A stretch of 64,000 bases of DNA, taken from positions 205,702 through 269,701 of the forward strand of contig CAVZCE010000001.1 in assembly GCA_963773695.1 (NCBI GenBank), given 5' to 3'. Under the pieces are notes generated by a model. The model saw only the letters and a list, made by a program, of their open reading frames with translations. It was not told the origin of the DNA and made no database searches. This stretch comes from an uncultured Chloroflexia bacterium. Lineage in GTDB: Bacteria; Chloroflexota; Limnocylindria; QHBO01. Made by a program: the position numbers and the translations under genes. Positions 17,368-53,419 of this stretch are shown here, piece after piece (within the stretch, counting starts at the first letter, position 1; each line of letters starts with the position of its first letter).

Positions 17368-17618
17368 GGCGCGAGTGTGGCGGCGACGCACCACGCCGGC
17401 AATGGCGGAATCAGGCCATCGGGCTGGTACCTCCGGCGTACTCATGGCGCCGCGGGGGCGGAGGCCCCGGCGATGCGAAAACCGCGGCCCGGTCGCCGTC
17501 CGCCATCGGTCAAGGGGAGACGATCGGCACACTTGTTGCGCCGTTGTATGGTTACGGCCCGCGCCGACCTCTCGAGGGCTCTGCGAGGGCGCGGGCGAGC
17601 GAAGCGAGGCGATCGGAC

Positions 17619-18668
17619 ATGGCGCGATCGATGTGGCGGGGGGCGATCCAGTTCGGGCTGGTCACCATCCCGGTCAAGCTCTACCTGGCGACCGAGAGCA
17701 CGAGCATCGGCTTCAACCTGCTCCACGAGACCTGCCTGAACCGGATCCAGATGAAGATCTACTGCCCGTACCACGACGAGGTGATCCCGCGGTCGGAGAC
17801 GGTCCGGGGCTACGAGTGGAGCAAGGGCAAGTACGTCGTCATCACGGAGGAGGACCTCGAGTCGGTTCCGCTCAAGACGGTCCGCACCATCGAGATCGAG
17901 AAGTTCGTGGAGGCCAACGAGGCGGAGGAGTCCGCCGCCCGCTTCGTGAAGCAGGAGTACTACCTGGAGCCCGACGAGATCGGGCGCAAGGCGTTCTACC
18001 TGCTCAAGAGCGTCCTGGCCGATGCCGGCAAGACCGCGATCTGCAAGATCGTCCTCAAGGACCGCGAGCAGCTCGCCGCCCTCTCCCCGTACGCGGAGAC
18101 GATGCTCCTCACCACGCTCCACTGGCCCGACGAGATCCGTTCGCTGGAGGAGCTGGAGCTTCCCGAGGACTCGATCCAGATCAAGGACGGCGAACGGAAG
18201 ATGGCCGAGCAGCTCGTGGCGAGCCTGACCGGCGATTTCGACCCTGCCGAATACACCGACGAGTACCGCGAGGCGCTGATGGGCGTCATCGAGGCGAAGG
18301 TCGCGGGCGAGGCGCCGCAGCCGTCCGCCAGGGCGGAGCCCACCCGCATCGGCGACCTGATGGCCGCCCTCGAGGCGTCGGTCGCCGCGGCCCGGGAGGG
18401 CCGTCGCGCACCGGCCGAGGCGGAGTCGCAGGCGAAGGCGGCCGGCGAGGCGAGCCGCGGCGAGAAGCCGTCGGACGGGCGCGCATCACCGAAGGCGTCC
18501 GCGAAGGGCGTGGGCCGGACCGCATCGGGCAAGGCCGCCGCGGGCAAGGCCGCCGCAGGCAAGGCCGCCGCGGCGAAGGCCGCCGCCGGCAACGGCTCGA
18601 GCTCCCGACGGAAGGGATCCCACGAGACGGAGGAGGAGCGGCCCGCCCGCCGGCGGAAGACCGCCTGA
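17619..18668 (+). CDS. ku: Ku protein (NHEJ DNA-end-binding) with a Lys/Ala-rich basic C-terminal tail
   Basis: MARSMWRGAIQFGLVTIPVKLYLATE... is the canonical bacterial Ku N-terminus. The C-terminus (KAAAGKAAAGKAAAAKAAAGNG) is encoded by about 4 tandem 15-bp repeats. Confidence 0.9.
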   Translation: MARSMWRGAIQFGLVTIPVKLYLATESTSIGFNLLHETCLNRIQMKIYCPYHDEVIPRSETVRGYEWSKGKYVVITEEDLESVPLKTVRTIEIEKFVEANEAEESAARFVKQEYYLEPDEIGRKAFYLLKSVLADAGKTAICKIVLKDREQLAALSPYAETMLLTTLHWPDEIRSLEELELPEDSIQIKDGERKMAEQLVASLTGDFDPAEYTDEYREALMGVIEAKVAGEAPQPSARAEPTRIGDLMAALEASVAAAREGRRAPAEAESQAKAAGEASRGEKPSDGRASPKASAKGVGRTASGKAAAGKAAAGKAAAAKAAAGNGSSSRRKGSHETEEERPARRRKTA

Positions 18669-27300: not shown

Positions 27301-27803
27301 GCCGGGGCAACCCGGTATCCGGCGTGGGTCTCGAGCCGCATCGAGCGGCGACCGGCGAGGTAGATGGCGACTCGCTCGTACCCGAACTGGGTGCGGAGCG
27401 CGTCCATTGCCACGCGGCAGACCGCGACGGGGCTGGGACCACCGGCGCCCTGGGCGAGGCGGGTGAGCACGGCCACCTCCGCGTCCCGGCGCGTGGCCCC
27501 CGGATGGGTTGCGGTGGCGGGCTCCGCGGCCTGGCTGCCCTCGGCCAGCAGCATCTCGAGGTCGGCTCGCCGGAAGCGGCGATCGCCGCGAGCGTTGATC
27601 CGATAGGCGGGGAGCCGGCCGGCATCGGTCCAGGCGCGAATCGTGTTCGGGTGCACGCCGAGCTGGGCGGCTGCCTGCGCGACGCTGACGAGTGCCTGGG
27701 GATCGCTCCCCCGGTCGCGGCCTATGGTCGACACCGTGTCTGCTCCCGAGCCGGTCCCGATCTTCGTGCGCTCCTGCTGGAGCTTCTGTGAGGAACCGTG
27801 CAA
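24339..27803 (-). CDS. Large c-di-GMP signalling protein: N-terminal MerR/excisionase-type HTH, multiple GAF domains, a GGDEF diguanylate cyclase domain and a C-terminal HD(-GYP)-like domain
   Basis: The HTH is LVSVAQAAAQLGVHPNTIRAWTDAGRLPAYRINARGDRRFRRADL. The GGDEF region is RYGGDEFVVVLHG. The HD-like region is HADRVAKLARAVSVRLG...IELAARLHGLDEI. The start is TTG at 27803 or GTG at about 27741. Confidence 0.75.
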   Translation of the reverse strand: MHGSSQKLQQERTKIGTGSGADTVSTIGRDRGSDPQALVSVAQAAAQLGVHPNTIRAWTDAGRLPAYRINARGDRRFRRADLEMLLAEGSQAAEPATATHPGATRRDAEVAVLTRLAQGAGGPSPVAVCRVAMDALRTQFGYERVAIYLAGRRSMRLETHAGYRVAPATTIDPAEVHALDRSREPSLRNGEGGPELRLPLRAGSELLGVLVITRAASGELGEQDLSFLRTVAGALGATIHNARMLARARRELTRARALRVVIQDLIGQLDLPAVLDEIADRARALFDADKVGLWLLTEGSPTFQLGASRGIGDSFQARIRSLTLDSPSVGVRAVLERRTHVVQGAGADPTVGVLHEVYEAEGIDSACLVPLVSNDRTMGVLGLYHLKRHDWPSDELNLAQALANQAAVAISNARLYRATLDQAARMRSIQDLSARLNRLTDVRAIAEAIVAEASTLAEYHDIRVYEVDWERRVCEPIAFTRRLLGEGGDFVEQLRVTIGPGSFTGTVAETGEPLLINDALADQRGLTIAGTDDIDESMLVVPMLYEGRALGVVALSKLGIGQFTNDDLQTMKIFAGYAAQAIANARSYEQLERQSAELARQLQSQRRLLEINERLLSTFDQPHVLELIADGLLSVVRYDNLSVYRADHAERILKPVLSRDRHEAVVSRYQIPFGRGLMGWAVDHGEPVLANDALDDPRAMQIPGTPADPESLCVVPLVSDGFVIGSLNISRIGGAEAHFSETDFELVKLFAGQASIALRNADAHYAVSQRAETDALTGLGNHGAFQRYLDDLFEHVDDEAGEPPFGLLMMDLDRFKEYNDCLGHPAGDALLNAIGKAITHASRTDDRAFRYGGDEFVVVLHGVDAADSALVGDRIRRAVAQLTAGEANPVTITVGVAAYPGDARNKNSLISAADTALYYGKQAGENRVVRIGDVPREMRALRGTLDQLARAALLHPEEAGHMEQLVEQAARLGSGIDDEASAALRDAVLAMARSLGAQDAATRRHADRVAKLARAVSVRLGCPEHEADTIELAARLHGLDEIRTEQLDGVRSLHGVREILDAERRLVAGARRRGRGPISLGAEIVAAANHYDAAAGGQAGGGSAVRRALAELPARTPTVRHEVLDALRTVVAPRVRPITRGRRRADSASEQGAA

Positions 27804-32095: not shown

Positions 32096-32198
32096 ACCTT
32101 CGCGGCGCATCCACCTGTGGGTGCGCCGTTGTCGTTCTCCGAGCCGATGGTGCCGCCGCGCCGTGCGTGGCGGCAGTGGAAAGGAGCGACGCGGCGCG

Positions 32199-32855
32199 AT
32201 GCGAGCGGTGGTGGTGGCCGATGGCGACCCCGCGCCCTCGGATGCGAGCGTCCTCGCGGACGCGGACCTGCTGATCGCCGCCGACGGCGGAGCCGGCTGG
32301 CTCGAACGGATCGGGCGACGGCCGGACCTCCTCGTGGGCGATCTCGACTCGGTAGATCCGGAGACTGCGGAGCGCCTGGCCGGATCGGGCACGGAGGTCA
32401 TCCGCCACCCGGTGGAGAAGGATGCCTCCGACACGGAGCTGGCCCTCGAGGTCGCGTTCGAGCGTGGGGCCGACGAGGTCCTGCTGCTCGGCGTCCTGGG
32501 CGGCCGGAGGATCGACCACGAGCTGGCGAACCTCCTGCTGCTGGCCGACGCGGACCTGGCGTCGAAGGACGTCCGGATCGTCCGGGGCGGCACGACGGTG
32601 CGGGTCCTGGCCGGGCCCGGCGCGCTGCCCCTCGTCGCGGGCCCGGGCGCGGCGGTCACGCTGCTGCCCCTCGCCGGCGACGCGCATGGCGTCACGACGC
32701 GGGGGCTGCGCTACCCGCTCCGTGCCGAGACGCTCAGGGTCGGACGCTCCCGTGGTCTCTCGAACGAGGTCGTCGAGGCTCCGGCATCGGTCCGCCTCGA
32801 GGCCGGGTCGCTCCTGGTGGTGGAGATCGCCGCAGGCGATGGAGGAGACGAATGA
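32199..32855 (+). CDS. thiN: Thiamine pyrophosphokinase
   Basis: MRAVVVADGDP...LLIAADGGAG...VGDLDSV... matches the TPK catalytic and thiamin-binding domains. An AAGGAG RBS lies 11 nt upstream. Confidence 0.75.
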   Translation: MRAVVVADGDPAPSDASVLADADLLIAADGGAGWLERIGRRPDLLVGDLDSVDPETAERLAGSGTEVIRHPVEKDASDTELALEVAFERGADEVLLLGVLGGRRIDHELANLLLLADADLASKDVRIVRGGTTVRVLAGPGALPLVAGPGAAVTLLPLAGDAHGVTTRGLRYPLRAETLRVGRSRGLSNEVVEAPASVRLEAGSLLVVEIAAGDGGDE

Positions 32856-34938: not shown

Positions 34939-35736
34939 GTGCAGCTCGCCACGCCGCTCTCCGTCCGCGCCGATGCGCCGCTCGGGTCGCTCGATCCGCT
35001 GGCCCGGATCGGAGCCGCGGTGATCCTCATGGGATTCGGGTTCGTCGCCCTGGACGGCGTCACCGCCGGCATCATCCTGGCCGGCATCCTCGCGGTCACG
35101 CCCATGACCGGCATCGGGCTCCGCGCGCTCTCGCGGCGGGCGTGGCCGATCGTCGTGGCCGCGGTGCTCATTGCGCTGGTCAACGCCGTCCTCGGCCCGC
35201 CGCGAGGGGCCGTGGTGCTGGCGGCCGGTCCCGTCGCCGTCCACGGCGGCAGCCTCCTCGCCGGCGCGGCCCTGGGGCTCCGGATCCTGGCGATCGCCCT
35301 GGCGGGGGTCGTGGCGCTCGCCGCGACCGACCCCACCGACCTCGCGGACGCCCTCGTCCAGGAGCTTCACGCGCCGCCGCGCTTTGCCCTGGGGGCGCTC
35401 GCCGCGCTGCGGCTCATGCCGCTCCTCGCCCAGGAGTGGCAGCTCGTCGGGCTCGCGCGCCGCGCGCGCGGCGTGAGCGCCCGGTCGCCTCTTGGCTGGG
35501 TGCGCCTCCAGGCTGGGCGGCTCATGGCCCTGCTGGTGGGCGCCATTCGCCGGGCGACGCGGCTTGCGCAGGCCATGGAGGCGCGGGGCCTCGGGTCGCG
35601 CCGATGCCGGACGGCTGCCCGGCCGCAGCGGATGACGCGCCTGGACGGCGCCGTCCTCGGGGGCGCGCTCCTGCTGGGCGCGGCCGCCACCGTGGTCAGC
35701 CTGCTGCTGGGCACGTACCGCCCGCTCTTCGGCTGA
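34939..35736 (+). CDS. ECF transporter T (transmembrane/EcfT/CbiQ-like) component, YkoC-like
   Basis: It is a polytopic membrane protein with the conserved ARGxR-like segment LAQAMEARGLGS, and it is the last gene of the operon. Confidence 0.7.
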   Translation: MQLATPLSVRADAPLGSLDPLARIGAAVILMGFGFVALDGVTAGIILAGILAVTPMTGIGLRALSRRAWPIVVAAVLIALVNAVLGPPRGAVVLAAGPVAVHGGSLLAGAALGLRILAIALAGVVALAATDPTDLADALVQELHAPPRFALGALAALRLMPLLAQEWQLVGLARRARGVSARSPLGWVRLQAGRLMALLVGAIRRATRLAQAMEARGLGSRRCRTAARPQRMTRLDGAVLGGALLLGAAATVVSLLLGTYRPLFG

Positions 35737-43091: not shown

Positions 43092-43817
43092 ATGCAGATG
43101 CCGACTGACCGCCTGCCCACCCCGGACCGCGTCCTCGTGGTCGCCGCTCATCCCGACGACATCGAGTTCGGCGCTGCCGGCACGGTCGCACGCTGGATCG
43201 ACGAAGGCGCCAGGGTGCGCTACCTCCTCGTCACCCGGGGTGACAAGGGCAGCGACGATCCCGACGTGGATCCGGGACGGCTCGCCGCGCAGCGCGAGCG
43301 CGAGCAGCGCCAGGCGGCGGACGAGCTGGGCGTCGAGGGGGTCGACTTCCTCGAGGAGCCGGACGGCCAGGTGGAGGCCAGCCTGCGCCTCCGCGAGCGG
43401 ATCACGTACGCCATCCGCGCCTTCCGGCCGGAGATCGTGATGACCCATGACCCCACGGTCCTCTTCGTGAACAACGAATGGGTCAACCATCCGGATCACC
43501 GCGCGGTGGGCATGGTGACGGTGGACGCCGTCTTCCCCACGGCCCGTGACCCGCTGAACCTCCATGAGCACCTCGACGCCGGCCTCGGACCGTGGAAGGT
43601 GGCGGAGCTCTACCTGTGGAGCACGAACGAGGCGAACCAGCTCGTGGACATCGGCGAGACCCTGGACCGCAAGATCGCGGCGCTGAGCTGCCACGAGAGC
43701 CAGTTCCGCGACTTCGCGGAGACGGAGCGCTGGCTGCGCCGCACCTCCGAGGAGCTCGGTGAGCGCGCCGGCTACCGCGCCGCCGAAGGCTTCCGCAGGG
43801 TGATGCTGGCCCGATGA
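43092..43817 (+). CDS. PIG-L/LmbE-family N-acetylglucosaminyl deacetylase
   Basis: VLVVAAHPDDIEFGAAGT and HPDHRAVG are the PIG-L zinc-binding motifs. Confidence 0.75.
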   Translation: MQMPTDRLPTPDRVLVVAAHPDDIEFGAAGTVARWIDEGARVRYLLVTRGDKGSDDPDVDPGRLAAQREREQRQAADELGVEGVDFLEEPDGQVEASLRLRERITYAIRAFRPEIVMTHDPTVLFVNNEWVNHPDHRAVGMVTVDAVFPTARDPLNLHEHLDAGLGPWKVAELYLWSTNEANQLVDIGETLDRKIAALSCHESQFRDFAETERWLRRTSEELGERAGYRAAEGFRRVMLAR

Positions 43818-45913
43818 CCGGCTGGCGGGGGAGCACACGGGCCCGCGCCCGGGCCGCGGTGCTCGGCACGCTCCTGCTCCTCGCCGCCTGCTCGACGGGC
43901 CCCGCGCCGACGCCATACCCGACCCAGGCGCCGATGCCGCCTGCCGGCCGTGCTTCGAAGGTCGCAGGCGAGTTCCTCGCCGCCTGGCAGGCGGGCAACG
44001 TGGAGGACATGTGGGCCATGCTGGCTCCAGCCGACCGCGCGGCCGTGGGCCACGATCGATTCGTCAGTCTCTATACGGAGTTCGCCGCGCTCGTCCGCCT
44101 CACCAGGCTCACCGCCACCGCCGATCCCGCGGTCCCCACCGCGCTCCCGCCGGAGCCGCTCCCCCCCGACCTGCGGGTGACGCCCGAACCGGTGGCGTCG
44201 GGGACCGCATCGGGGTCGCCGACGGCATCGGCCGCTGCGAGCGCATCGGCCTCTCCGGTCCCATCTGCCTCGGTGGCCGCGTCGCCATCGGCCTCGACAG
44301 CCGGCTCGCCGGCGCCTCCGGTGCTCGCCGGCCCCGTGCCGGCCATGGCGGTGAACGCCCACATCAGCCTGACCACCGACCTCTTCGGCCGGGTTGCGCT
44401 GGATCGGACGATCACGCTCGTCCGCGGTGCCTCCGACTGGCAGGTGCGCTGGAGCCCGGCCTGGCTCTTTCCGGCGCTCGCCGCGGACGGGACCCTGGCG
44501 CTGTCACGCCAGGCCTCCCCGCGCGGCCGGATCGTGGCCGAGGACGGGACCGTATTCGCCATGACCCGCTCGAACGGGATGCGTGTCTACCCGCAGGAGT
44601 ACCTGGCGGGGCAGGCCGTGGGCTACGCCAGCAGGGTCACCGCGGCGGACCTGAGGGGCGGCCTCGCCGCGCGCGGCTACGAGGCGGGGGACTGGGTGGG
44701 CCGCAGCGGCCTCGAGGCGGGCGCGGAGTACCTCCTGCGCGGGACTCCGGGATTCACGCTGTCCGCCGTTCGGCCCGGCCAGGATCCGGTCACCGTCCTC
44801 CAGACGCCCATGACCCCAGGCGCGAATGTCACCATCACCCTGCAGCCCGCCCTCCAGCGCACCGCGGAGTCGGCGATGGCCCGCTATCCGCGGGTCGGAA
44901 GCGCGGCCATCGATCCGCGAAACGGCGACGTGCTGGTCCTCGCCTCGCTGCCGCGGTTCGACCCCAACGCCATGACCCTCGGCACGACCCTCAAGGGGGT
45001 GGCCCTGGCGAAGCCGTCGTCGGCACAGATCGCGGACAAGGCCGTCATCGGCGCGTACCCCGCGGGATCGGACTTCAAGCCGTTCACCCTCGGCGCGGCA
45101 CTGCAGACCGGCACGGTCAAGTCGACGGACACGATGCTCTGCCCGAGCACCTGGACGTACGACGGGTTCCGGTTCAAGAACTGGATGTTCGAGACGCTTC
45201 CCGGCCAACGGACGTGGGTCGACACCATGGCCCTCTCCTGCAACACGACCTACATGCCCCTGAGCATCCGCGTCTACCAGAAGGACAACAGCGCGCTGAC
45301 GGACCTGCTCCACAGCTTCGGGTTCGGGCAGCCCACCGGCATCCCGTTCCTCGCCGAGAGCACCGGCCGCCTCCCGGATGCGGCCTACTACGAGACCCAC
45401 AAGCGCTGGAACGGGAAGATGTCCCCGTACGGGCCTTTCGACCAGATCCAGCTTGCCATCGGCCAGGGAGAGTTCCTGGGCACGCCGCTCCAGCTGGCCA
45501 CCGCCTACGCCGCGTGGGGCAACCGCGGGACCCTCTGGCAGCCGCGGATCGTGGTGCGGGCCACGCTTCCGGACGGGACGGTCGTCTATGACAGCCAGCC
45601 CACCGTCCACACCCGCATCCCCCTGCGCCGGGACGTGATGGACTACGTGGTGAAGACCATGCGCGCCGTGGTCACCTCGCCGCTCGGCACGGCGCACCGA
45701 TCCTTCCTGGGCTTCCCGTACACGGTCGCCGGCAAGAGCGGCACCGCGGAGACCGGCGGCCCGGATCCCGACGCGTGGTTCCCCTCCTTCGCCCCGGTGA
45801 ACGACCCGACCATCGCCGTGGCGGTCGTCGTCGTCACGGTCCCGCTCGGCAACGGCGGCGACTTCGCAGCCCCCATCGTGCGGCGAATCATGGAGACCCA
45901 CTTCAGTCACTGA
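43814..45913 (+). CDS. Penicillin-binding protein 2-type transpeptidase (class B PBP)
   Basis: The motifs are SDFKPF (SxxK), SCNTTY (SxN) and KSGTAE (KSG). There is an N-terminal lipobox/TM, and the ATG overlaps the deacetylase stop as ATGA. Confidence 0.8.
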   Translation: MTGWRGSTRARARAAVLGTLLLLAACSTGPAPTPYPTQAPMPPAGRASKVAGEFLAAWQAGNVEDMWAMLAPADRAAVGHDRFVSLYTEFAALVRLTRLTATADPAVPTALPPEPLPPDLRVTPEPVASGTASGSPTASAAASASASPVPSASVAASPSASTAGSPAPPVLAGPVPAMAVNAHISLTTDLFGRVALDRTITLVRGASDWQVRWSPAWLFPALAADGTLALSRQASPRGRIVAEDGTVFAMTRSNGMRVYPQEYLAGQAVGYASRVTAADLRGGLAARGYEAGDWVGRSGLEAGAEYLLRGTPGFTLSAVRPGQDPVTVLQTPMTPGANVTITLQPALQRTAESAMARYPRVGSAAIDPRNGDVLVLASLPRFDPNAMTLGTTLKGVALAKPSSAQIADKAVIGAYPAGSDFKPFTLGAALQTGTVKSTDTMLCPSTWTYDGFRFKNWMFETLPGQRTWVDTMALSCNTTYMPLSIRVYQKDNSALTDLLHSFGFGQPTGIPFLAESTGRLPDAAYYETHKRWNGKMSPYGPFDQIQLAIGQGEFLGTPLQLATAYAAWGNRGTLWQPRIVVRATLPDGTVVYDSQPTVHTRIPLRRDVMDYVVKTMRAVVTSPLGTAHRSFLGFPYTVAGKSGTAETGGPDPDAWFPSFAPVNDPTIAVAVVVVTVPLGNGGDFAAPIVRRIMETHFSH

Positions 45914-45990: not shown

Positions 45991-46020
45991 TTGACACATC
46001 GAGCACGCGGACGGTAGCAT
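45991..46020 (+). promoter_or_regulatory. Candidate sigma-A-type promoter (TTGACA-N18-TAGCAT) upstream of the flavoprotein/cytochrome b operon
   Basis: TTGACA at 45991-45996 and TAGCAT at 46015-46020 lie in a 171-bp non-coding gap. The only support is the -35/-10 consensus match. Confidence 0.35.
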
Positions 46021-46084
46021 CGGCCTGCCGCGACTCCGCCCCACCGCGCCTGAGCGCGCATGCAGGACCGAGCGAACGACGCCC

Positions 46085-48037
46085 TTGATCTCCCAGAACG
46101 CAATCCCTCTCCGATTCCAGACGGCCGAGGTTGGCGTCGACTGGTTGCAGTGCAACATCGAATGCCAGGAAGGCTGCCCCGTCAACACCAACTGCCGGGG
46201 CTACCTCATGCTGGCCGCGGAAGGGCGCTTCGAGGAGGGGTACATCCTCGCCCGCGACCCCAACCCGGTGGCCGCCATCTGCGGGTACGTCTGCAGCGCG
46301 CCGTGCGAGAAGGCCTGTCGCCGCGCGGACATCGACAAGCCGCTCGCCATCCGGGCCATGAAGCGCTTCCTGGTCGACTGGCACTACGCCAACAACATGC
46401 CCGACCAGGTCGATGTCGCTCCGCCCACCGGCAAGAGCGTGGGAGTGGTGGGCGCCGGCCCGGCGGGCCTCTCGGTCGCCAGGGACCTGGCCGCCGACGG
46501 CCACGAGGTCCACGTCTACGACGCGCTCCCCTCGGCGGGAGGCACCACCCTCATCGGCGTGCCGGCCTTCCGGCTGCCGCGCGACATCATCGAGCTCGAC
46601 GTCGCCTACGTCGCCAGCCACGGCGTGGAGTTCCACTACAACGTGGAGATCGGCCGCGACATCACGCTCGACGAGCTGCGCACGCGCCATGACGCGGTGG
46701 TTGTCGCCACCGGCTGCATGTTCCCGGTCGCCATGAACGTGCCCGGCGAGGAGCTCGACGGGGTGATCTACGGGGTCGACTTCCTGAAGCGGGCCAACCT
46801 GGGCCAGGAGCAGTGGGTGGGCGAGCACGTCCTCGTCATCGGTGGCGGCTACACCGCCATGGACTCCTCGCGCACCGCGCTGCGTCTCGGCGCCCGGACC
46901 TCCACGATCCTGTACCGCCGCGGGCCCGACGAGATGGTGGTCGACGAGGAGGAGCAGCACGAGACCCGCTTCGAGGGCGTGCAGTTCGAGTTCTTCGCCT
47001 CGCCGGTCGAGGTGCTCGGCGACGAGCACGGCAAGGTGGTCGGGATGCGGTTCCAGCGAACGCGCCTCGGGCCGCCGGACGCCACCGGGCGCCGCTCGGC
47101 GGAGCCCATCCCCGGCAGCGAGTTCGTGGTCCCCTGCGACATGGTCATCCCCTGCACCAGCCAGGCCGCCGACAACAACGTGCTGGGTCGCTACGGGAGC
47201 CAGCTCAACCGGCACCTGGGCGTGACCGACTCGCGCGCCGTGGTGGCCGGCGGCTCCACCTCCGCCTGGCGCACGGCGCCACCGTCCGTGGAGGGCGAGA
47301 CCGATGGCGACGCCTTCGACTTCCGGCGCGGCTACCTCACCATCAACCCCGACACGTTCGAGACGAGCGTCTCCGGCGTCTTCGCCTGCGGCGACTACGT
47401 GACCGGTCCGGCAACGATCATCGAGTCCGCCGGCCGGGGACGCCGGACCGCCCGCGCCGTGAGCCGCTGGCTGGGCGGGGTCCCCCAGGAGGAGCTCGCC
47501 GAGCTGCCGGTGATCAACCGCGCGGTGATCACCCAGGCGCTCGAGCACGACATGCCCAAGGACTACGAGGCGTTCGAGCGCCACCACATCCCCATGGCCC
47601 CGCCGGAGCTGCGCCGCGACTTCACGAGCCTCGTGGAGATCGGCTACGACACCCGGTCTGCCATCGAGGAGGGGGCCCGCTGCCTGCAGTGCAACCACAA
47701 CATCAACATCGACGGCCCGCGCTGTATCCTCTGCGGCCTCTGCGCCGACGTCTGTCCCGAGGGCGTGATCTACATGATCGACAAGGGGCAGGTGGGCGGC
47801 GACGATCCCGAGATCGAGGCGTTCCAGTCCTGGCCCCGCGGCATTGCCATGATCATCGACGAGGAGCGCTGCATCCGCTGCAACCTCTGCGTCGAACGGT
47901 GTCCGACCAACTGCATCACGATGGACCGCCTCGAGCTGGAGCGGTTCACGCCTGACGGGAAGGTTCTGTTGGAGAGCTACAAGGACAACGTCCTGGGACA
48001 GATCGGTCAGCAGGCCGGATCGGTGGTGCGACGATGA
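46085..48037 (+). CDS. GltD/NfnB-like NAD(P)H-dependent FAD/Fe-S oxidoreductase with two C-terminal 4Fe-4S ferredoxin motifs (soluble)
   Basis: The N-terminal Cys clusters are [11 protein letters not shown]...[23 protein letters not shown] and [12 protein letters not shown] are the two Rossmann motifs. The C-terminal [26 protein letters not shown] and [12 protein letters not shown] are ferredoxin motifs. It starts with TTG (uncertain), and its stop overlaps the cytochrome b6 start as ATGA. Confidence 0.75.
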
Positions 48038-48768
48038 GCTTCCCCGGACCGGGCGACTGGTACCGCGGCCTGAAGGAGACGCAGGTCTGGCGCTCACTCT
48101 TCCGCCAGCCATATCCGTCCACCAGCCGCACGCGCGCGCTGGCGGTCATGAACAACGTCTTCCTGCACCTGCACCCGGTGCGGGTCAAGAGGCACGCGGT
48201 TCGCTACACGTACACCTTCTGCCTGGGCGGGATCAGCTTCTTCCTCTTCCTGGCCCTGACCGTGACCGGCCTGTACCTCATGTTCTTCTACGTGCCCTCG
48301 GTCAGCCGCGCCTACCAGGACATCCTGGCTATCGAGAACTCGGTGGCCTTCGGGGAGCTCGTCCGGAACATGCACCGATGGGCGGCGCACCTCATGGTGC
48401 TCACCGTCTTCCTCCACATGATCCGCGTCTTCTATCACGGCGCCTACAAGCCGCCGCGCGAGTTCAACTGGGTGATCGGGGTCCTGCTCCTCTTCTCGAC
48501 CCTGTGGCTCAGCTTCACCGGCTACCTGCTGCCGTGGGACCAGATCGCCTTCTGGGCCATCACGGTCGGCACGCAGATGGCCACCTACGCCCCGCTCCTC
48601 TCACAGCAGTCGTCGCTCTTCCTCCTCGGCGGGATCGAGGTGGGCCAGGGCACCCTGCTCCGGTTTTACGTGTTCCATGTCATCGCCTTCCCGCTGATCG
48701 CCGCCATCCTGATGATCGTCCACTTCTGGAGGATCCGGAAGGACGGCGGAATCAGTGGGCCGGTGTGA
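48034..48768 (+). CDS. petB: Cytochrome b6-type cytochrome b (4-helix N-terminal half, bis-heme)
   Basis: Heme-ligand histidines are present in [23 protein letters not shown] and [20 protein letters not shown]. The W..LP (PEWY region) lies in the next gene, so cytochrome b is split. Confidence 0.8.
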
Positions 48769-48795
48769 GCGCGGTAGGATAGGGACGGCAGACCC

Positions 48796-49413
48796 ATGAC
48801 CATCGAGAAGCGGCCAAACGCGACCGCCGACAAGAACGCTCCGACCCAGGCGCCACGGGTGCCGACCGTCGAGCGCGGAGGCGGGCCAAAGCTTCCCGGA
48901 CCCCCCGGCGTGCCGGGGACCGAGCGGTTCCGCCTGCTCGCCTACGTCAAGCAGGAGTCCATGGTCCGCGTCGACAAGCGACCGGACGAGACCGTCCTGA
49001 CCTGGCCCCACCTGCTCCGAGCGGAGTTCCTGATGGCCGCGCTGATCACCGGGCTCCTGGTGGTCGCATCGGTCTTCATCCAGGCGCCGCTCGAGCAGAT
49101 GGCGAACGCGGGCAACACGCCGCACGTCGCCAAGGCGCCGTGGTACTTCCTGGGTCTGCAGGAGATTCTCAGCTACTTCAACCCTGCGGTGGCCGGCGTC
49201 TTCGTGCCGACCATCTACCTGGGTGGCCTCGCGATCGTCCCGTTCCTCGACCGCTCGCCGTTCAAGGCGGCCCGTGACCGGAAGCTGATCTGGGTCTTCT
49301 TCATGTGCCTGATGGTGGGCGGCCTGATCGTCACCTTCATCGGGTCCTTCTTCAGAGGCCCGGGCTGGAACTGGGTCTGGCCGTGGGAAGGGGGCATCTT
49401 CTTCAACCTATGA
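48796..49413 (+). CDS. petD: Cytochrome b C-terminal domain / b6f subunit IV-like
   Basis: PHVAKAPWYFLGLQEILSYF contains the PEWY-equivalent motif. It has three TM helices. Confidence 0.75.
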   Translation: MTIEKRPNATADKNAPTQAPRVPTVERGGGPKLPGPPGVPGTERFRLLAYVKQESMVRVDKRPDETVLTWPHLLRAEFLMAALITGLLVVASVFIQAPLEQMANAGNTPHVAKAPWYFLGLQEILSYFNPAVAGVFVPTIYLGGLAIVPFLDRSPFKAARDRKLIWVFFMCLMVGGLIVTFIGSFFRGPGWNWVWPWEGGIFFNL

Positions 49414-50072
49414 GCAGTCGCACGAATCTTTCCTATGGAGCCGTCACGGGCGCTCCCCAGCGGGAGATCAGCCGCCGGACCTTCATGCGCCGCATGCTCG
49501 GCGCGGGCATGGGCCTCCTGGGGCTCGAGTTCCTGGGCGGCACCCTGGCATTCCTGTGGCCGAACCTCTCGGGCGGCCTGGGCGGCAAGATCACGCTCGG
49601 TTCCGCGAGCGACATCATGACCGTCTGGCCGGACTGGGCGAAGGGGCAGCCCTACACGTACCAGAAGGCGCGCCTCTTCTTCGTCAACGTCCCCGCCGGC
49701 GAGCAGCTGGTGGACGGCAAGACCCCGAACGTTCCCGACCCGGGCAAGAAGGTGGACGAGACCATCCCCGTCAAGGACCGCTCGGTCCTGGCCCTCTACC
49801 GCAAGTGCCCGCACCTCGGCTGCCAGATCCCTCCGCTGTGCGAGAAGAGCCACTGGTTCGAGTGCCTCTGCCACGGCAGCAAGTACACGATCCTGGGCGA
49901 GAAGCGTGACGGCCCCGCCCCGCGCGGGATGGACCACTTCCCGGTGCTGGTCGACAGCTCCGGTGTCTACACGGTGGACACCGGAAAGAAGGTCACGGGC
50001 TCCCCGGTGGGGACCGTCACCTTCGACCCGCGCACCGCGGCCGATCTCACCGGCAAGCACTGCTCGGGCTGA
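49410..50072 (+). CDS. Rieske [2Fe-2S] iron-sulfur subunit with a twin-arginine signal
   Basis: The Tat motif is RRTFMRRMLGAG. CPHLGC and CLCHGSKY are the Rieske boxes. The ATG overlaps the upstream stop as ATGA. Confidence 0.85.
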   Translation: MSSRTNLSYGAVTGAPQREISRRTFMRRMLGAGMGLLGLEFLGGTLAFLWPNLSGGLGGKITLGSASDIMTVWPDWAKGQPYTYQKARLFFVNVPAGEQLVDGKTPNVPDPGKKVDETIPVKDRSVLALYRKCPHLGCQIPPLCEKSHWFECLCHGSKYTILGEKRDGPAPRGMDHFPVLVDSSGVYTVDTGKKVTGSPVGTVTFDPRTAADLTGKHCSG

Positions 50073-50076
50073 GGCG

Positions 50077-50883
50077 ATGCGGATCAAGACGCTTGGAGTC
50101 CTGGTGGTGAGCGCGCTGGCGATCTTCACCATGTTCTACTGGTTGACGGACTCCTCGCGCCTCTCTTCCCGGCAGCAGACCGCGCAGGAGGAGCAGCTCG
50201 CCTTCGGCAAGGAGGTCTTCGCCAACAACCCGAACGACCCGTCCGCCGCGGGCTGCGCGCGCTGCCACGGCGCGGACGGAATGGGCGGTCCCGTCCCCGG
50301 GCAGCCGGGGCTCAACGCGCCGAATCTCCACAGCCCCAGCCTCGCGAGCAAGCTGAAGGTCAACCCGGATTACGTCAACCTCGTGATCCGGTTCGGCGGC
50401 GTCGTCGTCTCCGGCAACGTGAGCTCGGTGATGCCGGCCTGGAGCACGGAGGTCGGCGGACCGCTCACCGTGCAGCAGATCGATGCGCTCACTGCGCTCG
50501 TGACGGGCTGGGCGAAGGAGAACGCGAACGCCAGCCAGTCGCCGCCACCCAACACCGCCGACGCGGGCAAGGAGGTCTACAACTCGGTCGGCTGCGTCAG
50601 CTGCCACCAGGCCGACCTGGGCGGCGTCCCCGGCACCTTCCCGAGCCTGCAGAACGTCGGGAACGAGATCGGGACCGGGCTCCCGAATCCGCCGTCGGGG
50701 CTGGACCAGATGAAGGCGGACTACGCGAAGGATCCGGCGACCTTCTTCACGAAGTGGATCCGCGACTCGTCGAACAACTACAACGGCGGCACCGCGACGG
50801 GAATGCCTGCCTTCCCCCAGTCGCAGCTGTCCGACGACCAGCTGCAGGCGCTCATCACCTTCCTGCTGACGCAGAAGCAGTGA
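50077..50883 (+). CDS. Membrane-anchored diheme cytochrome c
   Basis: Two CxxCH motifs (CARCHG, CVSCHQ) follow an N-terminal TM helix. Confidence 0.8.
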   Translation: MRIKTLGVLVVSALAIFTMFYWLTDSSRLSSRQQTAQEEQLAFGKEVFANNPNDPSAAGCARCHGADGMGGPVPGQPGLNAPNLHSPSLASKLKVNPDYVNLVIRFGGVVVSGNVSSVMPAWSTEVGGPLTVQQIDALTALVTGWAKENANASQSPPPNTADAGKEVYNSVGCVSCHQADLGGVPGTFPSLQNVGNEIGTGLPNPPSGLDQMKADYAKDPATFFTKWIRDSSNNYNGGTATGMPAFPQSQLSDDQLQALITFLLTQKQ

Positions 50884-50920
50884 GCTCCTCGCAGCACGAC
50901 GTGGAGACCGTGACGGACCT

Positions 50921-51550
50921 ATGAGCCTGAACCGACCGCGATCCAGGATCACCGGCGCCAACCTGCTCGGCGAGGTCGACGACTTCATGAGCTGGCTGCT
51001 GTACGGCTACGAGACGTGGCTGATCGCCGTCCTCAAGGGCGTCCCGCTCTTCCTCTACGTCTACTTCCTGCTCGCCTACGTGCCGAACTACGTCTACTAC
51101 GGGGTGACGCAGTACCTGGGCTTCATCAAGTTCACGCCCGAGACGGGCTTCATCTTCGCGTTCGGCGCCGGCAGCGCCAACCTCGTGGTGTTCATCGTCC
51201 TGCTGATGTGGACGCAGGCCGGACGCGGGCGGCGCGGCTTTGCCTGGACCTTCGTGCGGATCGTGGACTTCCTGCAGCTGCTCTTCGTGTACCTCCTGCT
51301 CATCCCGCTCCTCGCCTTCAACATGGCGGGCGGCACGTTCGTGCCGCCGGAGGGGACGCCGTGGTACGGCCCCACCATCACGATCTCCCTCGGTGCCCAG
51401 GTCGCGATCCCGCTCGCCATCGCCTTCGGCATCCTGGTCGCCATCCTGGGGGCTGTGGTGCTCCTCTTCTTCGTGGTCGAGTACCGCCGCGTGACGCGCC
51501 GCGCAGCGCTGCCGGCGGAGGCACAGTCGACCGCCTACCTGCCGGGCTGA
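50921..51550 (+). CDS. Hypothetical polytopic membrane protein (4 TM helices), possible accessory subunit of the Rieske/cyt b complex
   Basis: It is hydrophobic, co-oriented, and starts 37 nt after the cytochrome c gene with a GGAGA RBS. Confidence 0.5.
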   Translation: MSLNRPRSRITGANLLGEVDDFMSWLLYGYETWLIAVLKGVPLFLYVYFLLAYVPNYVYYGVTQYLGFIKFTPETGFIFAFGAGSANLVVFIVLLMWTQAGRGRRGFAWTFVRIVDFLQLLFVYLLLIPLLAFNMAGGTFVPPEGTPWYGPTITISLGAQVAIPLAIAFGILVAILGAVVLLFFVVEYRRVTRRAALPAEAQSTAYLPG

Positions 51551-51636
51551 TCCGGCCCGCCGCCATCGACGCTCGCCGCTCCGGCTCGTCGCATCGCCCG
51601 CGATCCTGGCTCGCCCATGCCGCGTGGTCGGCGCTC

Positions 51637-51930
51637 GTGCTGCTCCTCGCCGCGATCCTCGTCGGGCTGGAGCTCGGCAGCCGCTGTCCGCCCGGCGGTC
51701 CGCTCGCCTTCGGCAGCTGCACGGTGCGTCCCACCGCCATCGGCGTCGTGGCGCTGGGCGCCGTGCTCTACGTCGCCGGCCTGACGGCGGTCCTCGCCTG
51801 GGTCGGCGGCCTGCAGCGGCGGCGAGTGGCGGATGCCCGCGCGGCGCGCGACTGGTACCTGCTGGCAGCGACCATCGGCCTGCCGATCGCCCCCCTTCTG
51901 GCCTTCACCGTTGTCCTCGCCCTTCGCTAG
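51637..51930 (+). CDS. Possible small membrane protein (98 aa), low confidence
   Basis: A GTG start opens a hydrophobic ORF with very high GC3 (VLLLAAILVGL...LAFTVVLALR). The exact start is uncertain. Confidence 0.3.
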   Translation: MLLLAAILVGLELGSRCPPGGPLAFGSCTVRPTAIGVVALGAVLYVAGLTAVLAWVGGLQRRRVADARAARDWYLLAATIGLPIAPLLAFTVVLALR

Positions 51931-51967: not shown

Positions 51968-53419
51968 ATGACCGTCTCCTCATCGCAGGAGCTCGTTGAT
52001 CTCCTCTCCGGTGCCGCCCGGATCAGCGGCGATCGCCTGTCCGTGACCGATGCCGGCCGGTTCCGGTCGGAGGTGATCGACCGTCTCGTCCGCGAGGCCG
52101 TCTTCAACGCCGACGAGGGGCTGCGCACCGCCGCCCGCTGGATCATCTGGGAGGCGAGCATCGAGCTCGGATGCCCGTCGGCCTCGATCCACGAGCTGTA
52201 CATGGCGCGGGGCCGGGGCGAGTTCGGGCCCACCGACTTCACCGTGCCGGCCATCAACGTCCGCGCGGATGCCTACCTCACCGCCCGCCAGGCCTTCGCC
52301 GCCGCCATGGAGCGCGACGCGGGCGCCATGATCTTCGAGATCGCCAAGAGCGAGATGGCGTACACCGACCAGCGGCCGGCGGAGTACACCGCGGTGATCC
52401 TGGCCGCCGCCATCCGCTCCGGCTGGCCCGGACCGGTCTTCCTCCAGGGCGACCACTTCCAGTTCAACGCCACGAAGTGGGCGGCGGACCCCGAGAAGGA
52501 GATGGCCGGCCTGCGTGAGCTCACGACGGAGGCCATCGGCGCCGGCTTCCTGAACATCGACATCGACTCGAGCACCCTGGTCGACCTCTCGCAGCCCACG
52601 GTCCCCGAGCAGCAGCGGACGAACGCAGAGAACAGCGCCTCGCTGACCCGGCTGATCCGCGAGCTGGAGCCCGATGGGGTCACCATCTCGGTGGGTGGCG
52701 AGATCGGCGAGGTCGGCAAGGCGAATTCGAACGAGGAGGAGCTGCGCGCCTACCTCGACGGGTACCTCGGCATGCTTCCCTCGGGCATGGCCGGCGTGAG
52801 CAAGGTGAGCATCCAGACCGGCACGAGCCACGGCGGCGTGGTCCTGCCGGACGGCACCGTGGCCCAGGTCAAGATCGACTTCGACACCATGAAGCGCCTC
52901 TCGACGGTGGCGCGCAGCGAGTACGGCCTGGCCGGCTGCGTCCAGCACGGCGCATCGACCCTGCCCGACGAGGCGTTCCACCACTTCCCCGGCAACGGGA
53001 CCGCGGAGATCCACCTGGCCACCGGCTTCCAGAACATCCTCTACGACGCCGGAGGGCTTCCCCACGCGCTGCGCGAGCAGATGATGGCGTGGGTCGCGGA
53101 GAACCTGGCCGGCGAGCGCAAGGAGGGCGAGACCGAGGAGCAGTTCCTCTACAAGTCGCGCAAGAAGGCCATCGGCCCGTTCAAGCGTGTCGTGTGGGAC
53201 CTGCCCGATGCTGCCGCGGACGAGATCGCGGGGCACCTGCGCGACAAGTTCGGCTTCCTCTTCGACCAGCTGAAGATCGCCGGGACCCGCGAGGTCGTCG
53301 ACCGGTTCGTCCACCCGGTGGCGGTCCATCGTCCACTGCCGAGGACGCTGGGCGGCGGCGCCGTCGCCGCGACGACGGCGGGCGCCCACGTCTTCGAGGA
53401 CGACGGCTCCGGGGAGTAA
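51968..53419 (+). CDS. Class II (metal-dependent) fructose/ketose-bisphosphate aldolase family protein, long form (483 aa)
   Basis: FLQGDHFQ, ISVGGEIGEVG, IQTGTSHGG and CVQHGASTL correspond to the HTDH / ELG / NVHG / FHGGSG zinc and active-site motifs of class II FBA. Confidence 0.7.
   Translation: MTVSSSQELVDLLSGAARISGDRLSVTDAGRFRSEVIDRLVREAVFNADEGLRTAARWIIWEASIELGCPSASIHELYMARGRGEFGPTDFTVPAINVRADAYLTARQAFAAAMERDAGAMIFEIAKSEMAYTDQRPAEYTAVILAAAIRSGWPGPVFLQGDHFQFNATKWAADPEKEMAGLRELTTEAIGAGFLNIDIDSSTLVDLSQPTVPEQQRTNAENSASLTRLIRELEPDGVTISVGGEIGEVGKANSNEEELRAYLDGYLGMLPSGMAGVSKVSIQTGTSHGGVVLPDGTVAQVKIDFDTMKRLSTVARSEYGLAGCVQHGASTLPDEAFHHFPGNGTAEIHLATGFQNILYDAGGLPHALREQMMAWVAENLAGERKEGETEEQFLYKSRKKAIGPFKRVVWDLPDAAADEIAGHLRDKFGFLFDQLKIAGTREVVDRFVHPVAVHRPLPRTLGGGAVAATTAGAHVFEDDGSGE

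Follow-up and report, generated by a model that had tools for sequence, protein, structure and literature searches.

Gene content of the operon

The window, a stretch of 64,000 nucleotides from a soil bacterium of the Chloroflexota (class Candidatus Limnocylindria), contains a seven-gene operon that codes for a Rieske/cytochrome b6 respiratory complex and an NADP(H)-type iron–sulfur flavoprotein (Table 1). A preliminary description, made from the sequence alone, had placed the genes, the domains, two ATGA overlaps and a promoter-like site correctly, and the Pfam search of the products that it had suggested shows that its gene and domain assignments are correct; the lineage is neither the high-GC Gram-positive-like one that it assumed nor an actinobacterial one.

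Table 1. Features of the Rieske/cytochrome b6 operon (positions in the window)
Feature	Position	Strand	Basis
Sigma-70-type promoter candidate	45991..46020	+	TTGACA, 18-nt spacer, TAGCAT
650-aa Fe–S flavoprotein	46085..48037	+	Pfam, NCBIfam, PDB matches, AF2, Foldseek
Four-helix cytochrome b6	48034..48768	+	Pfam Cytochrome_B
Subunit-IV-like (SUIV) cytochrome b C-terminal domain	48796..49413	+	Pfam Cytochrom_B_C, 2e-10
Tat-exported Rieske [2Fe–2S] protein	49410..50072	+	Pfam Rieske; RRTFMRR
Membrane-anchored dihaem class I cytochrome c	50077..50883	+	two CxxCH; hydrophobic N-terminus
Membrane protein 1, polytopic, 209 aa	50921..51550	+	no Pfam/NCBIfam match; GC3 0.96; conserved
Membrane protein 2, small, ~100 aa	~51637..51930	+	GC3 0.91; tblastn conservation

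The first ATGA, in which the stop codon of the flavoprotein gene overlaps the start codon of the b6 gene, is legible directly in the sequence; the second joins SUIV to the Rieske gene. The flavoprotein and b6 genes overlap in the same way in 22 of the 25 Limnocylindria loci, even where the proteins are as little as 53% identical, which bears out the translational coupling proposed earlier, and a sequence scan found no credible terminator inside the operon.

The TTGACA-18-TAGCAT site is the sole match of a promoter scan between 45500 and 52500 (7 kb), where 0.4 would be expected by chance; on its own, such a single match is weak evidence. The promoter-like site was nevertheless rightly noticed: an element of the form TTGACA/TTGC.C ... 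(G)GGTAGCATCG is present upstream of the orthologous flavoprotein gene in 11 relatives, in which the -35 box and the extended -10 box (GGTAGCATCG) are kept while the flanking intergenic sequence has diverged. Transcription from this candidate promoter would give a leader of about 55–60 nt.

The TTG start of the flavoprotein is supported by the N-terminus (M/V)IS(E/Q)NAIPLRFQ, which is conserved in relatives. The protein begins with an NfnB/GltD-type module, in which two N-terminal Fe–S sites precede the folds for FAD and for NADP(H), the latter with a YRR motif, and ends with a C-terminal 2x[4Fe–4S] ferredoxin-like domain; Pfam matches are Fer4_20 at residues 21–104, Pyr_redox_2/Pyr_redox at 118–324 and two Fer4 motifs at 540–615, and the protein has invariant cysteines. 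It has no signal peptide and is cytoplasmic. Its matches among PDB sequences are a subunit of NfnABC (9n5u, 3e-100), NfnB (4ylf_B, 8e-84) and GltD (2vdc_G, 1e-65), and residues 533–618 match FwdF (5t5i_F). With the AF2 model (pLDDT 83), Foldseek ranks 9n5u_A, 9bov_A and 8oh5_C first, in alignments about 700 columns long that take in the part beyond the GltD-like module; NfnB and GltD come next. The combination of an NfnB/GltD-type FAD and NADP(H) module with a FwdF-like dicluster domain gives the same two structural homologues as for the anammox proteins Kustd1483/Kuste4570 (PMC12954380). A true GltD, which the preliminary description had considered as a possible refutation if a gltB partner existed elsewhere, was rejected: every GltD/GOGAT NCBIfam model scores far under its cut-off, and there is no gltB among the window ORFs scanned.

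Cytochrome b6 has the b6-type histidine spacing (H114/H128 and H216/H231) and keeps the haem-cN cysteine (C63 in FCLGG); its residues 60–244 align with residues 32–215 of the cyanobacterial protein 1vf5_A (E 1.6e-46). Its extended n-side N-terminus carries the motifs WRSxFR and NxFLHLHP (H45, H47). This N-terminal motif is common to all the flavoprotein-linked cytochromes b that were aligned, and the histidine of NxFLH is present in nearly all linked loci. The match to the ExtP profile begins only at residue 38, so that residues 1–37 form an extra n-side segment. The ExtP family is not known to carry such a flavoprotein. The SUIV-like protein has the Qo motif APWY, found as APWY[FL] in all the linked loci from which SUIV could be retrieved, and a segment WPHLLRAEF whose histidine and glutamate we take, from an alignment by eye to PetD, to adjoin the equivalent of Phe40 near haem cN; this segment may thus stand at the haem-cN pocket. 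The complex is a member of the "APWY clade", or cytochrome b "subfamily G".

The Rieske protein has a Tat motif (RRTFMRR) and the cluster motifs CPHLGC and CLCHGSKY. The latter, box II, contains a Ser-Tyr pair and is conserved across the Limnocylindria loci; this pair predicts a high midpoint potential, "above 260 mV" according to a rule given in a passage of Kao & Hunte 2014 (PMC4122944) that cites ten Brink 2013. The cytochrome c (haem motifs CARCH and CVSCH) matches Pfam Cytochrom_C and Cytochrome_CBB3, over two stretches each. Its counterparts are 48–89% identical to it within the close clade, and for those of the 53% clade the figure is about 30%. We class it as a generic class I cytochrome c with two domains. 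With 41 bits it stays far below the cut-off of the bc1_QcrC_actin model (200), and its assignment to the actinobacterial QcrC type was rejected; the hybrid with that type that had been suggested fails with it.

Membrane protein 1 occurs at the same position, with 43–68% identity, in the close Limnocylindria clade only, and is possibly a supernumerary subunit. Fifteen relatives have membrane protein 2 downstream of the operon according to tblastn (45–77% identity), and in one locus, L001, the gene calls include it with a length of 99 aa. Its conservation extends from about 51601 and the first canonical start codon is the GTG at 51637; its start is uncertain. Since both ORFs are conserved in relatives, the "one or two" extra membrane proteins first counted are two real genes.

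Distribution and known relatives

Among the 80 genome loci with a gene for a flavoprotein relative, 61 have those for cytochrome b6 and SUIV next to it and 12 are without them; in the other 7 the flanks are too short, which makes 61 of the 73 loci with enough flanking sequence. The linked loci include Acidobacteriota, an anammox Scalindua, Victivallales and Acidimicrobiia, and three further look-ups found the same cluster in Nitrospinae, Chloroflexi and Verrucomicrobia. The linkage is kept across at least six phyla despite a rearranged gene order, and it is not by chance that the flavoprotein gene lies beside those for the Rieske protein and cytochrome b.

Complexes of this kind are not new: descriptions exist for anammox bacteria, and their presence in other phyla has been noted. 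Chloroflexi cytochromes b were placed in the APWY clade by Kao & Hunte 2014 (PMC4122944), and Dibrova et al. [quoted passage not shown] Its comparison with anammox bacteria, on the contrary, was apt. There is no biochemically characterised complex of the APWY clade in the literature.

Identity to the Scalindua cluster is highest in b6 (60%), followed by SUIV (42%), the flavoprotein (33%) and the Rieske protein (28%). The Limnocylindria version is distinct in its gene order (flavoprotein-b6-SUIV-Rieske), its conserved 4-nt overlap between the flavoprotein and b6 genes, its haem-cN cysteine, its high-potential-type (Ser-Tyr) Rieske motif and its dihaem, rather than octahaem, cytochrome c.

A proposed role for the flavoprotein and its alternatives

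We propose that the NfnB/GltD-like NADP(H) flavoprotein is an integral n-side subunit of a Rieske/cytochrome b6 complex which most likely lets NADP(H) exchange electrons with the chain of low-potential b haems, and probably reduces NADP+ with quinol; taken as a whole, we give this reading an even chance. That the flavoprotein is a subunit is well supported; that electrons flow from quinol to NADP+ under physiological conditions is an analogy with anammox bacteria that we make tentatively.

In such an assembly, the flavoprotein would bind the cytochrome b6 dimer from the cytoplasm, with the extended N-terminus of b6 as the probable contact, and its four Fe–S clusters would wire the FAD to the n-side haems bN and cN, and possibly to an extra interfacial haem. 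After the mechanism proposed for anammox bacteria, the Qo site would oxidise menaquinol and send one electron downhill to the high-potential Rieske centre and cytochrome c, while the other would pass through unusually low-potential b haems and the Fe–S chain to the FAD, where NADP+ is reduced. On the p side, the path would lead from the Rieske protein to the dihaem cytochrome c and presumably to a terminal oxidase.

The production of NAD(P)H in anammox bacteria is itself a proposal, based on Rieske potentials and AlphaFold3 models: the equivalent Rieske proteins of Kuenenia were measured at +303 and +335 mV, values which according to the authors make the reduction of NAD(P)+ feasible. Along with the Ser-Tyr pair of box II, these potentials were counted for the direction from quinol to NADP+. 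With menaquinol, we estimate that the reaction is near thermoneutral, because electron transfer from the Qo site to the n side opposes the membrane potential. The haem-cN cysteine and the adjoining histidine and glutamate of SUIV suggest that the Qi site could still reduce quinone, in which case it would compete with the electron path to the flavoprotein, a problem that the anammox authors also raise.

The same assembly could work in reverse, although we find this rather unlikely: the flavoprotein would oxidise NAD(P)H and pass the electrons to haem bN/cN, from where they would reach quinone in the Qi site, much as ferredoxin/FNR supplies haem cn of b6f during cyclic electron flow. NAD(P)H would thereby pay for part of the quinol that is consumed at the Qo site, and the complex would on balance be an NAD(P)H:cytochrome c oxidoreductase that conserves energy. 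This reaction is strongly downhill, C63 and the SUIV residues suggest a working Qi pocket, FNR has reportedly been co-purified with b6f (Zhang et al. 2001, as cited in PMC5600118) and an aerobic heterotroph has no obvious need for reverse electron flow. However, this direction needs neither a high-potential Ser-Tyr Rieske protein nor the APWY motif, and the anammox authors consider this route from NAD(P)H to quinone wasteful compared to complex I. Moreover, most members of the wider family are without the haem-cN cysteine and yet keep the flavoprotein, which is therefore not conserved for haem cN or Qi chemistry. A flavin-based bifurcation of the FixABCX or NfnABC/StnABC kind, in which an NfnB-type FAD would split the electron pair of NADPH between two Fe–S arms, a high-potential one to cytochrome b and quinone and a low-potential one to a soluble ferredoxin, or the reverse confurcation, seems improbable to us. 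The best structural matches are indeed the bifurcating subunits of NfnABC and StnABC, and the flavoprotein has two separate Fe–S domains, N-terminal and C-terminal; but the AlphaFold3 models of the anammox homologues (PMC12954380) put the four clusters in a single linear chain from haem to FAD, and there is no gene for a ferredoxin or an NfnA-like partner in the operon or among the window ORFs scanned.

Last, the flavoprotein could stand outside the complex, as a soluble enzyme of the NAD(P)H:ferredoxin or GltD-like type whose gene is only co-transcribed with those of an ordinary menaquinol:cytochrome c reductase. Close paralogues in Thermomicrobiales and Desulfobacterota have the same domain architecture and no cytochrome b nearby, and the one locus inspected, L057 from Desulfobacterota, adjoins a thioredoxin-reductase-like enzyme and a 2-oxoacid:ferredoxin oxidoreductase; the architecture alone does not therefore imply membrane docking. 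Neither is there a natural flavoprotein-cytochrome b fusion among 150 representatives. We regard this explanation as very improbable in the face of the linkage across phyla, the conserved stop/start overlap, the signatures specific to the linked cytochromes b (N-terminal extension and APWY), the scores under the GltD-family cut-offs and the Kuenenia complexome data cited in PMC12954380, in which all subunits co-migrate. Counted for the flavoprotein being a subunit were the linkage (61/80), the 4-nt overlap, the conserved promoter, APWY, NxFLH and the co-migration in Kuenenia.

The operon and its host

Seven consecutive open reading frames lie on the + strand at positions 46085-51930 of the window, whose G+C content is about 72%, and their third-position G+C is that of real genes. 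The table lists their products: the flavoprotein (an NfnB/GltD-like iron–sulfur protein), cytochrome b6, a subunit-IV-like C-terminal domain protein of cytochrome b (SUIV), a Rieske protein, a cytochrome c and two membrane proteins, both considered to be genes because they are conserved in relatives. ATGA overlaps between stop and start codons are read in the sequence at the flavoprotein/b6 junction (48034-48037) and at the SUIV/Rieske junction (49410-49413). The TTG at 46085 is the earliest possible in-frame start of the flavoprotein, and the N-terminus that it gives agrees with the conserved (M/V)IS(E/Q)NAIPLRFQ of the relatives. The topology signals are those of a Tat-exported Rieske protein and an anchored cytochrome c, with no signal on the flavoprotein.

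Genes of the flavoprotein/cytochrome b operon in the window
Product	Position	Strand	Domains and motifs
Flavoprotein, 650 aa	46085-48037	+	Pfam Fer4_20 (21-104), Pyr_redox_2/Pyr_redox (118-324), two 4Fe-4S ferredoxin motifs (540-615)
Cytochrome b6, 244 aa	48034-48768	+	Pfam Cytochrome_B
SUIV, 205 aa	48796-49413	+	Pfam Cytochrom_B_C
Rieske protein	49410-50072	+	Pfam Rieske; Tat motif RRTFMRR
Dihaem class I cytochrome c	50077-50883	+	Pfam Cytochrom_C, two stretches
Membrane protein 1	50921-51550	+	no Pfam match
Membrane protein 2	about 51637-51930	+	no Pfam match

The promoter-like sequence TTGACA-18-TAGCAT is the sole match in 7 kb, where 0.4 would be expected by chance, which on its own is weak evidence of a promoter. 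The -35 element and the extended -10 element (GGTAGCATCG) are also found 5' of the orthologous gene in 11 relatives, and since the other intergenic DNA differs, we take them as the phylogenetic footprint of a real promoter. A riboswitch or another Rfam element in the leader of the operon is rejected: the Rfam matches in the window are a TPP riboswitch and a tRNA, both elsewhere. Directly 5' of the operon, genes for a PIG-L family deacetylase and a PBP2-like transpeptidase are found at 43092-45913 (+), and the same pair occurs in a relative of 82% identity (L001, 7235-9911). The conserved promoter separates the flavoprotein gene from the PBP gene, which suggests that the PBP gene and the operon are separate transcription units. 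On the other side, 38 nt past the last reading frame of the operon, a class-II aldolase-like gene (51969-53419, +; F_bP_aldolase, 9e-12; weak similarity to GatZ/KbaZ) is possibly co-transcribed with the operon in the window, but this arrangement is not conserved: the gene was not found after the operon in L001.

More than 120 cluster relatives share 81-91% identity with the flavoprotein, and those that are named come from Chloroflexota or Candidatus Limnocylindria MAGs; a genome scan gives the same lineage. The preliminary description had assigned the DNA to a high-GC Gram-positive-like lineage, and this assignment is therefore wrong. Limnocylindria is a class of Chloroflexota, abundant in soil and aerobic.

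The flavoprotein and its linkage to cytochrome b

The PDB sequences closest to the flavoprotein are the NfnB-like subunit of NfnABC (9n5u, 3e-100), StnC (8oh5_C), NfnB (4ylf_B, 8e-84) and GltD (2vdc_G, 1e-65), while the matches of its last 80 residues are the polyferredoxin FwdF (5t5i_F) and NuoI. The AlphaFold2 model (mean pLDDT 83) retrieves the same proteins as best PDB folds, with TM-scores of 0.66-0.67 over about 700 columns for NfnABC and StnABC, and of 0.77-0.79, normalised to the target, for NfnB and GltD. With NfnAB, NfnABC, StnABC and GltD the flavoprotein shares the fold and the cofactor motifs over its N-terminal 470 residues, including a YRR motif at the NADPH-binding position of GltD and NfnB; from this homology we infer that it prefers NADPH. 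It differs from them in having an extra C-terminal dicluster domain and no NfnA, NfnC or GltB partner, its genomic partner being instead a membrane cytochrome b complex. The cysteines that are invariant in 27 diverse relatives are those of the N-terminal sites, of an RCxxC pair and of two CxxCxxCxxxCP motifs.

Disorder in the model is restricted to residues 373-416, an insert of about 45 residues, and to the C-terminal tail of about 20 residues (629-650), where the pLDDT falls below 50. The insert is missing in most of the distant relatives of the flavoprotein. The insert or the tail could be a docking element.

Two enzymes of similar fold were considered and rejected as identities for the protein. 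It is not GltD proper, the scores of the three models being far below their cut-offs (TIGR01317, 190.9 versus 447.7; TIGR01318, 256.4 versus 482.95; TIGR01316, 316.6 versus 471.75), and no gltB was found among the window reading frames scanned. Nor is it part of an NfnAB transhydrogenase: the NfnB-like fold is present, but the [2Fe-2S]/FAD, FNR-like partner NfnA was not found, as neither the operon nor the window reading frames scanned contain an NfnA-like gene.

Relatives of the flavoprotein were searched in one genome per GTDB species, using an alignment of 8 sequences as the query (an alignment of 27 sequences was too diverse for this purpose), which gave 80 loci. A tblastn search with the window proteins showed that b6 and SUIV directly adjoin the flavoprotein in 61 of them; they are absent from 12, and the flank is too short in the other 7. 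The carriers of the linked genes include two Limnocylindria clades (80-90% and about 53% identity), a Chloroflexia MAG, many Acidobacteriota, among which the isolate Geothrix campi SG10, Victivallales, the anammox genus Scalindua, an Acidimicrobiia MAG and others. Three further look-ups via cytochrome b revealed the same cluster in Nitrospinae, in another Chloroflexi MAG and in Verrucomicrobia. Of the 25 Limnocylindria loci, 22 preserve the 4-nt overlap between the flavoprotein stop and the b6 start. A BLAST search against 150 flavoprotein representatives detected no fusion to b6, SUIV or Rieske protein.

The preliminary description was thus right about the gene and its linkage, which are real and located where it had placed them: the flavoprotein gene is present in relatives, no terminator is found at the flavoprotein/b6 junction, and a glutamate synthase small subunit is not what the GltD models indicate.

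In a neighbour-joining tree of the flavoproteins, computed from a numpy distance matrix, the Limnocylindria proteins form a deep branch of their own. Linkage to cytochrome b is also seen in a second large branch, made up of Acidobacteriota, Scalindua and others; the members of a third (Thermomicrobiales, Desulfobacterota) are mostly unlinked. Two of the unlinked paralogues were inspected. In a Thermomicrobiales MAG (L027, 5499-9806), the mechanically called reading frame continues from a rubrerythrin-type rubredoxin domain; the paralogue of Desulfoluna, the single Desulfobacterota locus inspected (L057, 7797-12999), is followed by genes for a thioredoxin-reductase-like enzyme and a 2-oxoacid:ferredoxin oxidoreductase. 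Among the set L007, L016, L022 and L040, MAGs labelled 'Steroidobacteraceae', 'Dormiibacterota' and 'Anaerolineaceae' bear loci of the Limnocylindria type (54-84% identity) and one 'Limnocylindrales' MAG bears a locus of the acidobacterial type; these mismatches between label and locus are likely the result of mis-binned contigs.

A member of the anammox-type and APWY family

The cytochrome b of the window is split into a four-helix b6 and a separate SUIV (Cytochrome_B and Cytochrom_B_C match separate reading frames), with His pairs 14 and 15 residues apart. The SUIV has APWYF, and all linked loci that yielded a SUIV share the Qo motif APWY[FL]. The b6 aligns to the cyanobacterial b6 of the PDB from residue 60 on, and it has the haem cN motif FCLGG, in which C63 is aligned with Cys35 of b6; this Cys is found in the Chloroflexota versions, and most of the clusters from Acidobacteriota, Scalindua, Nitrospinae and Verrucomicrobia are without it. 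An N-terminal histidine in the motif NxFLH, H45 in the window, is shared by almost all linked cytochromes b, and in most of them a WRSxFR segment comes before it. The window has both H45 and H47, in NNVFLHLHP, and the first His is present in all the linked cytochromes b where the motif was found, the anammox member of the comparison being Scalindua. Box II of the Rieske protein reads CxCHGS.Y in Chloroflexota (Ser-Tyr) and CPCHGS.F in most others; the window protein (CLCHGSKY, with Ser and Tyr) is predicted to be of the high-potential type by the rule of ten Brink and of Kao & Hunte.

These features are best compared with those of the anammox bacteria. Kartal et al. (2013) proposed that two complexes of Kuenenia stuttgartiensis, Kuste4569-4574 and Kustd1480-1485, reduce NAD(P)+ by quinol bifurcation. 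The potentials of the Kuenenia Rieske proteins were measured at +303 and +335 mV (Hauser et al. 2025, PMC12954380). In the AlphaFold3 models of the same study, four Fe–S clusters connect the FAD to the n-side haems by way of an extra interfacial haem b, which is predicted to be held by an N-terminal His of each cytochrome b (His43 of Kuste4571, His62 of Kustd1481). Common to these complexes and to the window are the split b6 and SUIV, the Rieske protein, a cytoplasmic NAD(P)-binding FAD protein with four Fe–S sites, the haem-cN motif and the high-potential-type Rieske signatures; the structural homologues of the window flavoprotein (NfnB/GltD type, FwdF 5t5i) are those reported for Kustd1483/Kuste4570, the likeness to Kuenenia being drawn from description. 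With the cluster of Scalindua the window shares the N-terminal LHLHP and APWY, and the two flavoproteins are 33% identical over residues 25-618. Unlike the anammox complexes, the window operon begins with the flavoprotein gene, whose stop overlaps the b6 start, and ends with two extra small membrane proteins. Its p-side cytochrome c is of dihaem class I, as opposed to the hexa- or octahaem proteins of the anammox type, an HAO-like partner is lacking, and the host belongs to a soil lineage of Chloroflexota that has no anammoxosome.

The complex can be assigned to the APWY clade of cytochromes b (Kao & Hunte 2014, PMC4122944), which corresponds to subfamily G of Dibrova et al. (2013/2017, PMC5600118). 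With this group the window shares the APWY Qo motif and a mostly short cytochrome b with CxGG, and the patchy spread of the clade over several phyla, including Chloroflexi, resembles that of the family described here. The Rieske proteins of the clade have mid-plus to high predicted potentials, and no member has been characterised (PMC4122944). Dibrova et al. (PMC5600118) reported that subfamily G co-occurs with large NAD(P)-binding Fe–S oxidoreductases, as noted earlier for planctomycetes, 'in many other cases'. These papers are phylogenomic surveys, in which the Limnocylindria operon is not described and no function is given. Our search of the literature gave neither an account of complex III in Limnocylindria nor experiments outside the anammox bacteria.

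The clusters L037-L084 (Acidobacteriota, Scalindua, Nitrospinae and Verrucomicrobia) have the order flavoprotein–Rieske–cytochrome b(–SUIV)–cytochrome c. They resemble the window in their homologous flavoprotein (about 33-37% identity), APWY and the N-terminal NxFLH His. They differ in that the Rieske gene lies between those of the flavoprotein and cytochrome b, that box II of the Rieske protein has S-F instead of the S-Y of the window, and that cytochrome b is often fused to SUIV. Such fused proteins, of 410-440 aa, are encoded at 10351-11583 in Scalindua L051 and at 6001-7300 in L082, L083 and L084 (hosts: Nitrospinae, a Chloroflexi MAG and Verrucomicrobia), and a search with the cytochrome b of Scalindua yielded members of this fused family only. 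In the clusters inspected in Geothrix, Acidobacteriaceae and Scalindua, the last gene encodes an octahaem cytochrome c (about 680 aa), where Limnocylindria have the dihaem protein; L082-L084 have a Cytochrom_C-family protein or multihaem cytochromes. Very large multihaem cytochromes and a molybdopterin oxidoreductase border the cluster of L083, an indication that the p-side partners vary with the host.

Two other systems were set aside. The hybrid with the actinobacterial QcrC type put forward in the preliminary description is not borne out, since the QcrCAB models score far too low (bc1_QcrB_actin, 105 versus 500 bits; QcrC, 41 versus 200; QcrA, 29 versus 275); QcrCAB itself or a hybrid of it is also ruled out by the split cytochrome b with APWY and by the Chloroflexota host. 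The second system is ExtOPQ, the complex of the selenite/tellurite operon of Geobacter. The b6 narrowly passes the NCBIfam cytb_ExtP equivalog (296.5 versus 290 bits), because it belongs to the same cytochrome b clade, but SUIV fails memb_ExtQ (53.7 versus 150 bits), so that only ExtP passes. The window locus has no Ext porin–cytochrome or selenite/tellurite context, and we know of no such flavoprotein in Ext clusters. The ExtP profile has no counterpart of the first 37 residues of the window b6: it begins at residue 38, and the alignment to b6 at residue 60, so that these first approximately 37 residues are an additional n-side extension.

As judged from its genes and motifs, the window operon has the defining parts of the anammox-type/APWY flavoprotein complexes, save the multihaem cytochrome c. 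It is not a new type of system but a new member of a known family, with some features of its own, and this family of flavoprotein-bearing Rieske/b6 complexes is more widely spread than the anammox literature suggests.

Possible function, and other genes of the window

We favour a mechanism in which the oxidation of quinol is split between the Rieske protein and NADP+, by the same argument as that made for Kuenenia. The flavoprotein would sit on the cytoplasmic face of the b6 dimer and mediate electron exchange between NADP(H) and the chain of low-potential haems; the conserved linkage and the overlapping reading frames are indirect evidence that it associates with the membrane subunits. When a quinol is oxidised, its first electron would pass to the Rieske protein, the dihaem cytochrome c and an oxidase, and the second would go to NADP+. 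The quinone is presumably menaquinone, as we assume from what is generally known of Chloroflexota. A Ser-Tyr Rieske protein combined with such a low-potential quinone leaves extra drive for the low-potential branch, and it is for this reason that we prefer the direction from quinol to NADP+. On the other hand, the transmembrane step of the electron would be opposed by the membrane potential, and the retained haem-cN pocket could still reduce quinone.

The reverse direction, a Q cycle fed by NAD(P)H, would use the same components, and we consider it somewhat unlikely. Flavin-based bifurcation to ferredoxin, which the NfnB-like fold brings to mind, appears unlikely. It is very unlikely that the flavoprotein is a soluble enzyme merely co-transcribed with the cytochrome genes, which it adjoins in most of the loci scanned. 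Regarding the split of quinol oxidation between the Rieske protein and NADP+, a broader proposal is that the Limnocylindria complex acts as a complex III and a quinol-bifurcating NADP+ reductase in one, or else that an NfnB-type flavin splits the electrons of NADPH between quinone and ferredoxin; taken as a whole, we regard this proposal as rather unlikely. If the complex were a complex III/NADP+ reductase, O2 would be the pulling acceptor, via the dihaem cytochrome c and the oxidase, and the menaquinol pool would yield NADPH directly, with no need for complex I to run in reverse. Either bifurcating reading, if true, would be a new way to couple respiration with the supply of reductant, relevant to organisms in which trace gases supply the quinone pool.

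So far, the discussion of Rieske/cytochrome b complexes that incorporate an NAD(P) oxidoreductase has been confined almost entirely to anammox bacteria, where their function is a proposal. The window locus and the 60-odd related loci place the module in Chloroflexota, Acidobacteriota, Planctomycetota, Nitrospinota, Verrucomicrobiota and Acidimicrobiia, some lineages of which probably respire oxygen. The existence of a stripped-down form, with a dihaem cytochrome c only, removes the anammox-specific partners from the problem, and cultured carriers are identified, such as Geothrix campi SG10 (L045), in which it can be tested whether NAD(P)H is formed by quinol-based bifurcation. For the window itself the gain is mainly the right annotation, where automatic pipelines say 'FAD-dependent oxidoreductase' and 'cytochrome b6'.

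Elsewhere in the window, the TPP riboswitch (Rfam RF00059; 31999-32102, +; 67.5 bits versus a gathering score of 54.3) lies just 5' of a reading frame at 32121-32855 and about 3 kb 5' of an ECF CbiQ-type transporter gene (34939-35736), so that these genes probably form a thiamine-regulated uptake operon. ARAGORN predicts two tRNA-Glu genes, at 1216-1305 (-) and 11882-11958 (-). The latter, a tRNA-Glu(TTC) of 77 nt, is confirmed by Rfam; the former, a tRNA-Glu(CTC) of 90 nt, is not, and as it lies inside a likely coding reading frame (499-1353) it is probably a false positive. An ATP-dependent DNA ligase with three ligase domains (13099-14862, +) and Ku (17358-18668, +) are encoded a few kb apart and make up a bacterial NHEJ pair. 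Last, the gene at 24339-27803 (-) codes for a protein of 1154 aa that combines an HTH of the MerR type with three GAF domains and a GGDEF diguanylate cyclase domain; judged by its predicted domains, it joins a DNA-binding domain to a c-di-GMP synthase, which is unusual.
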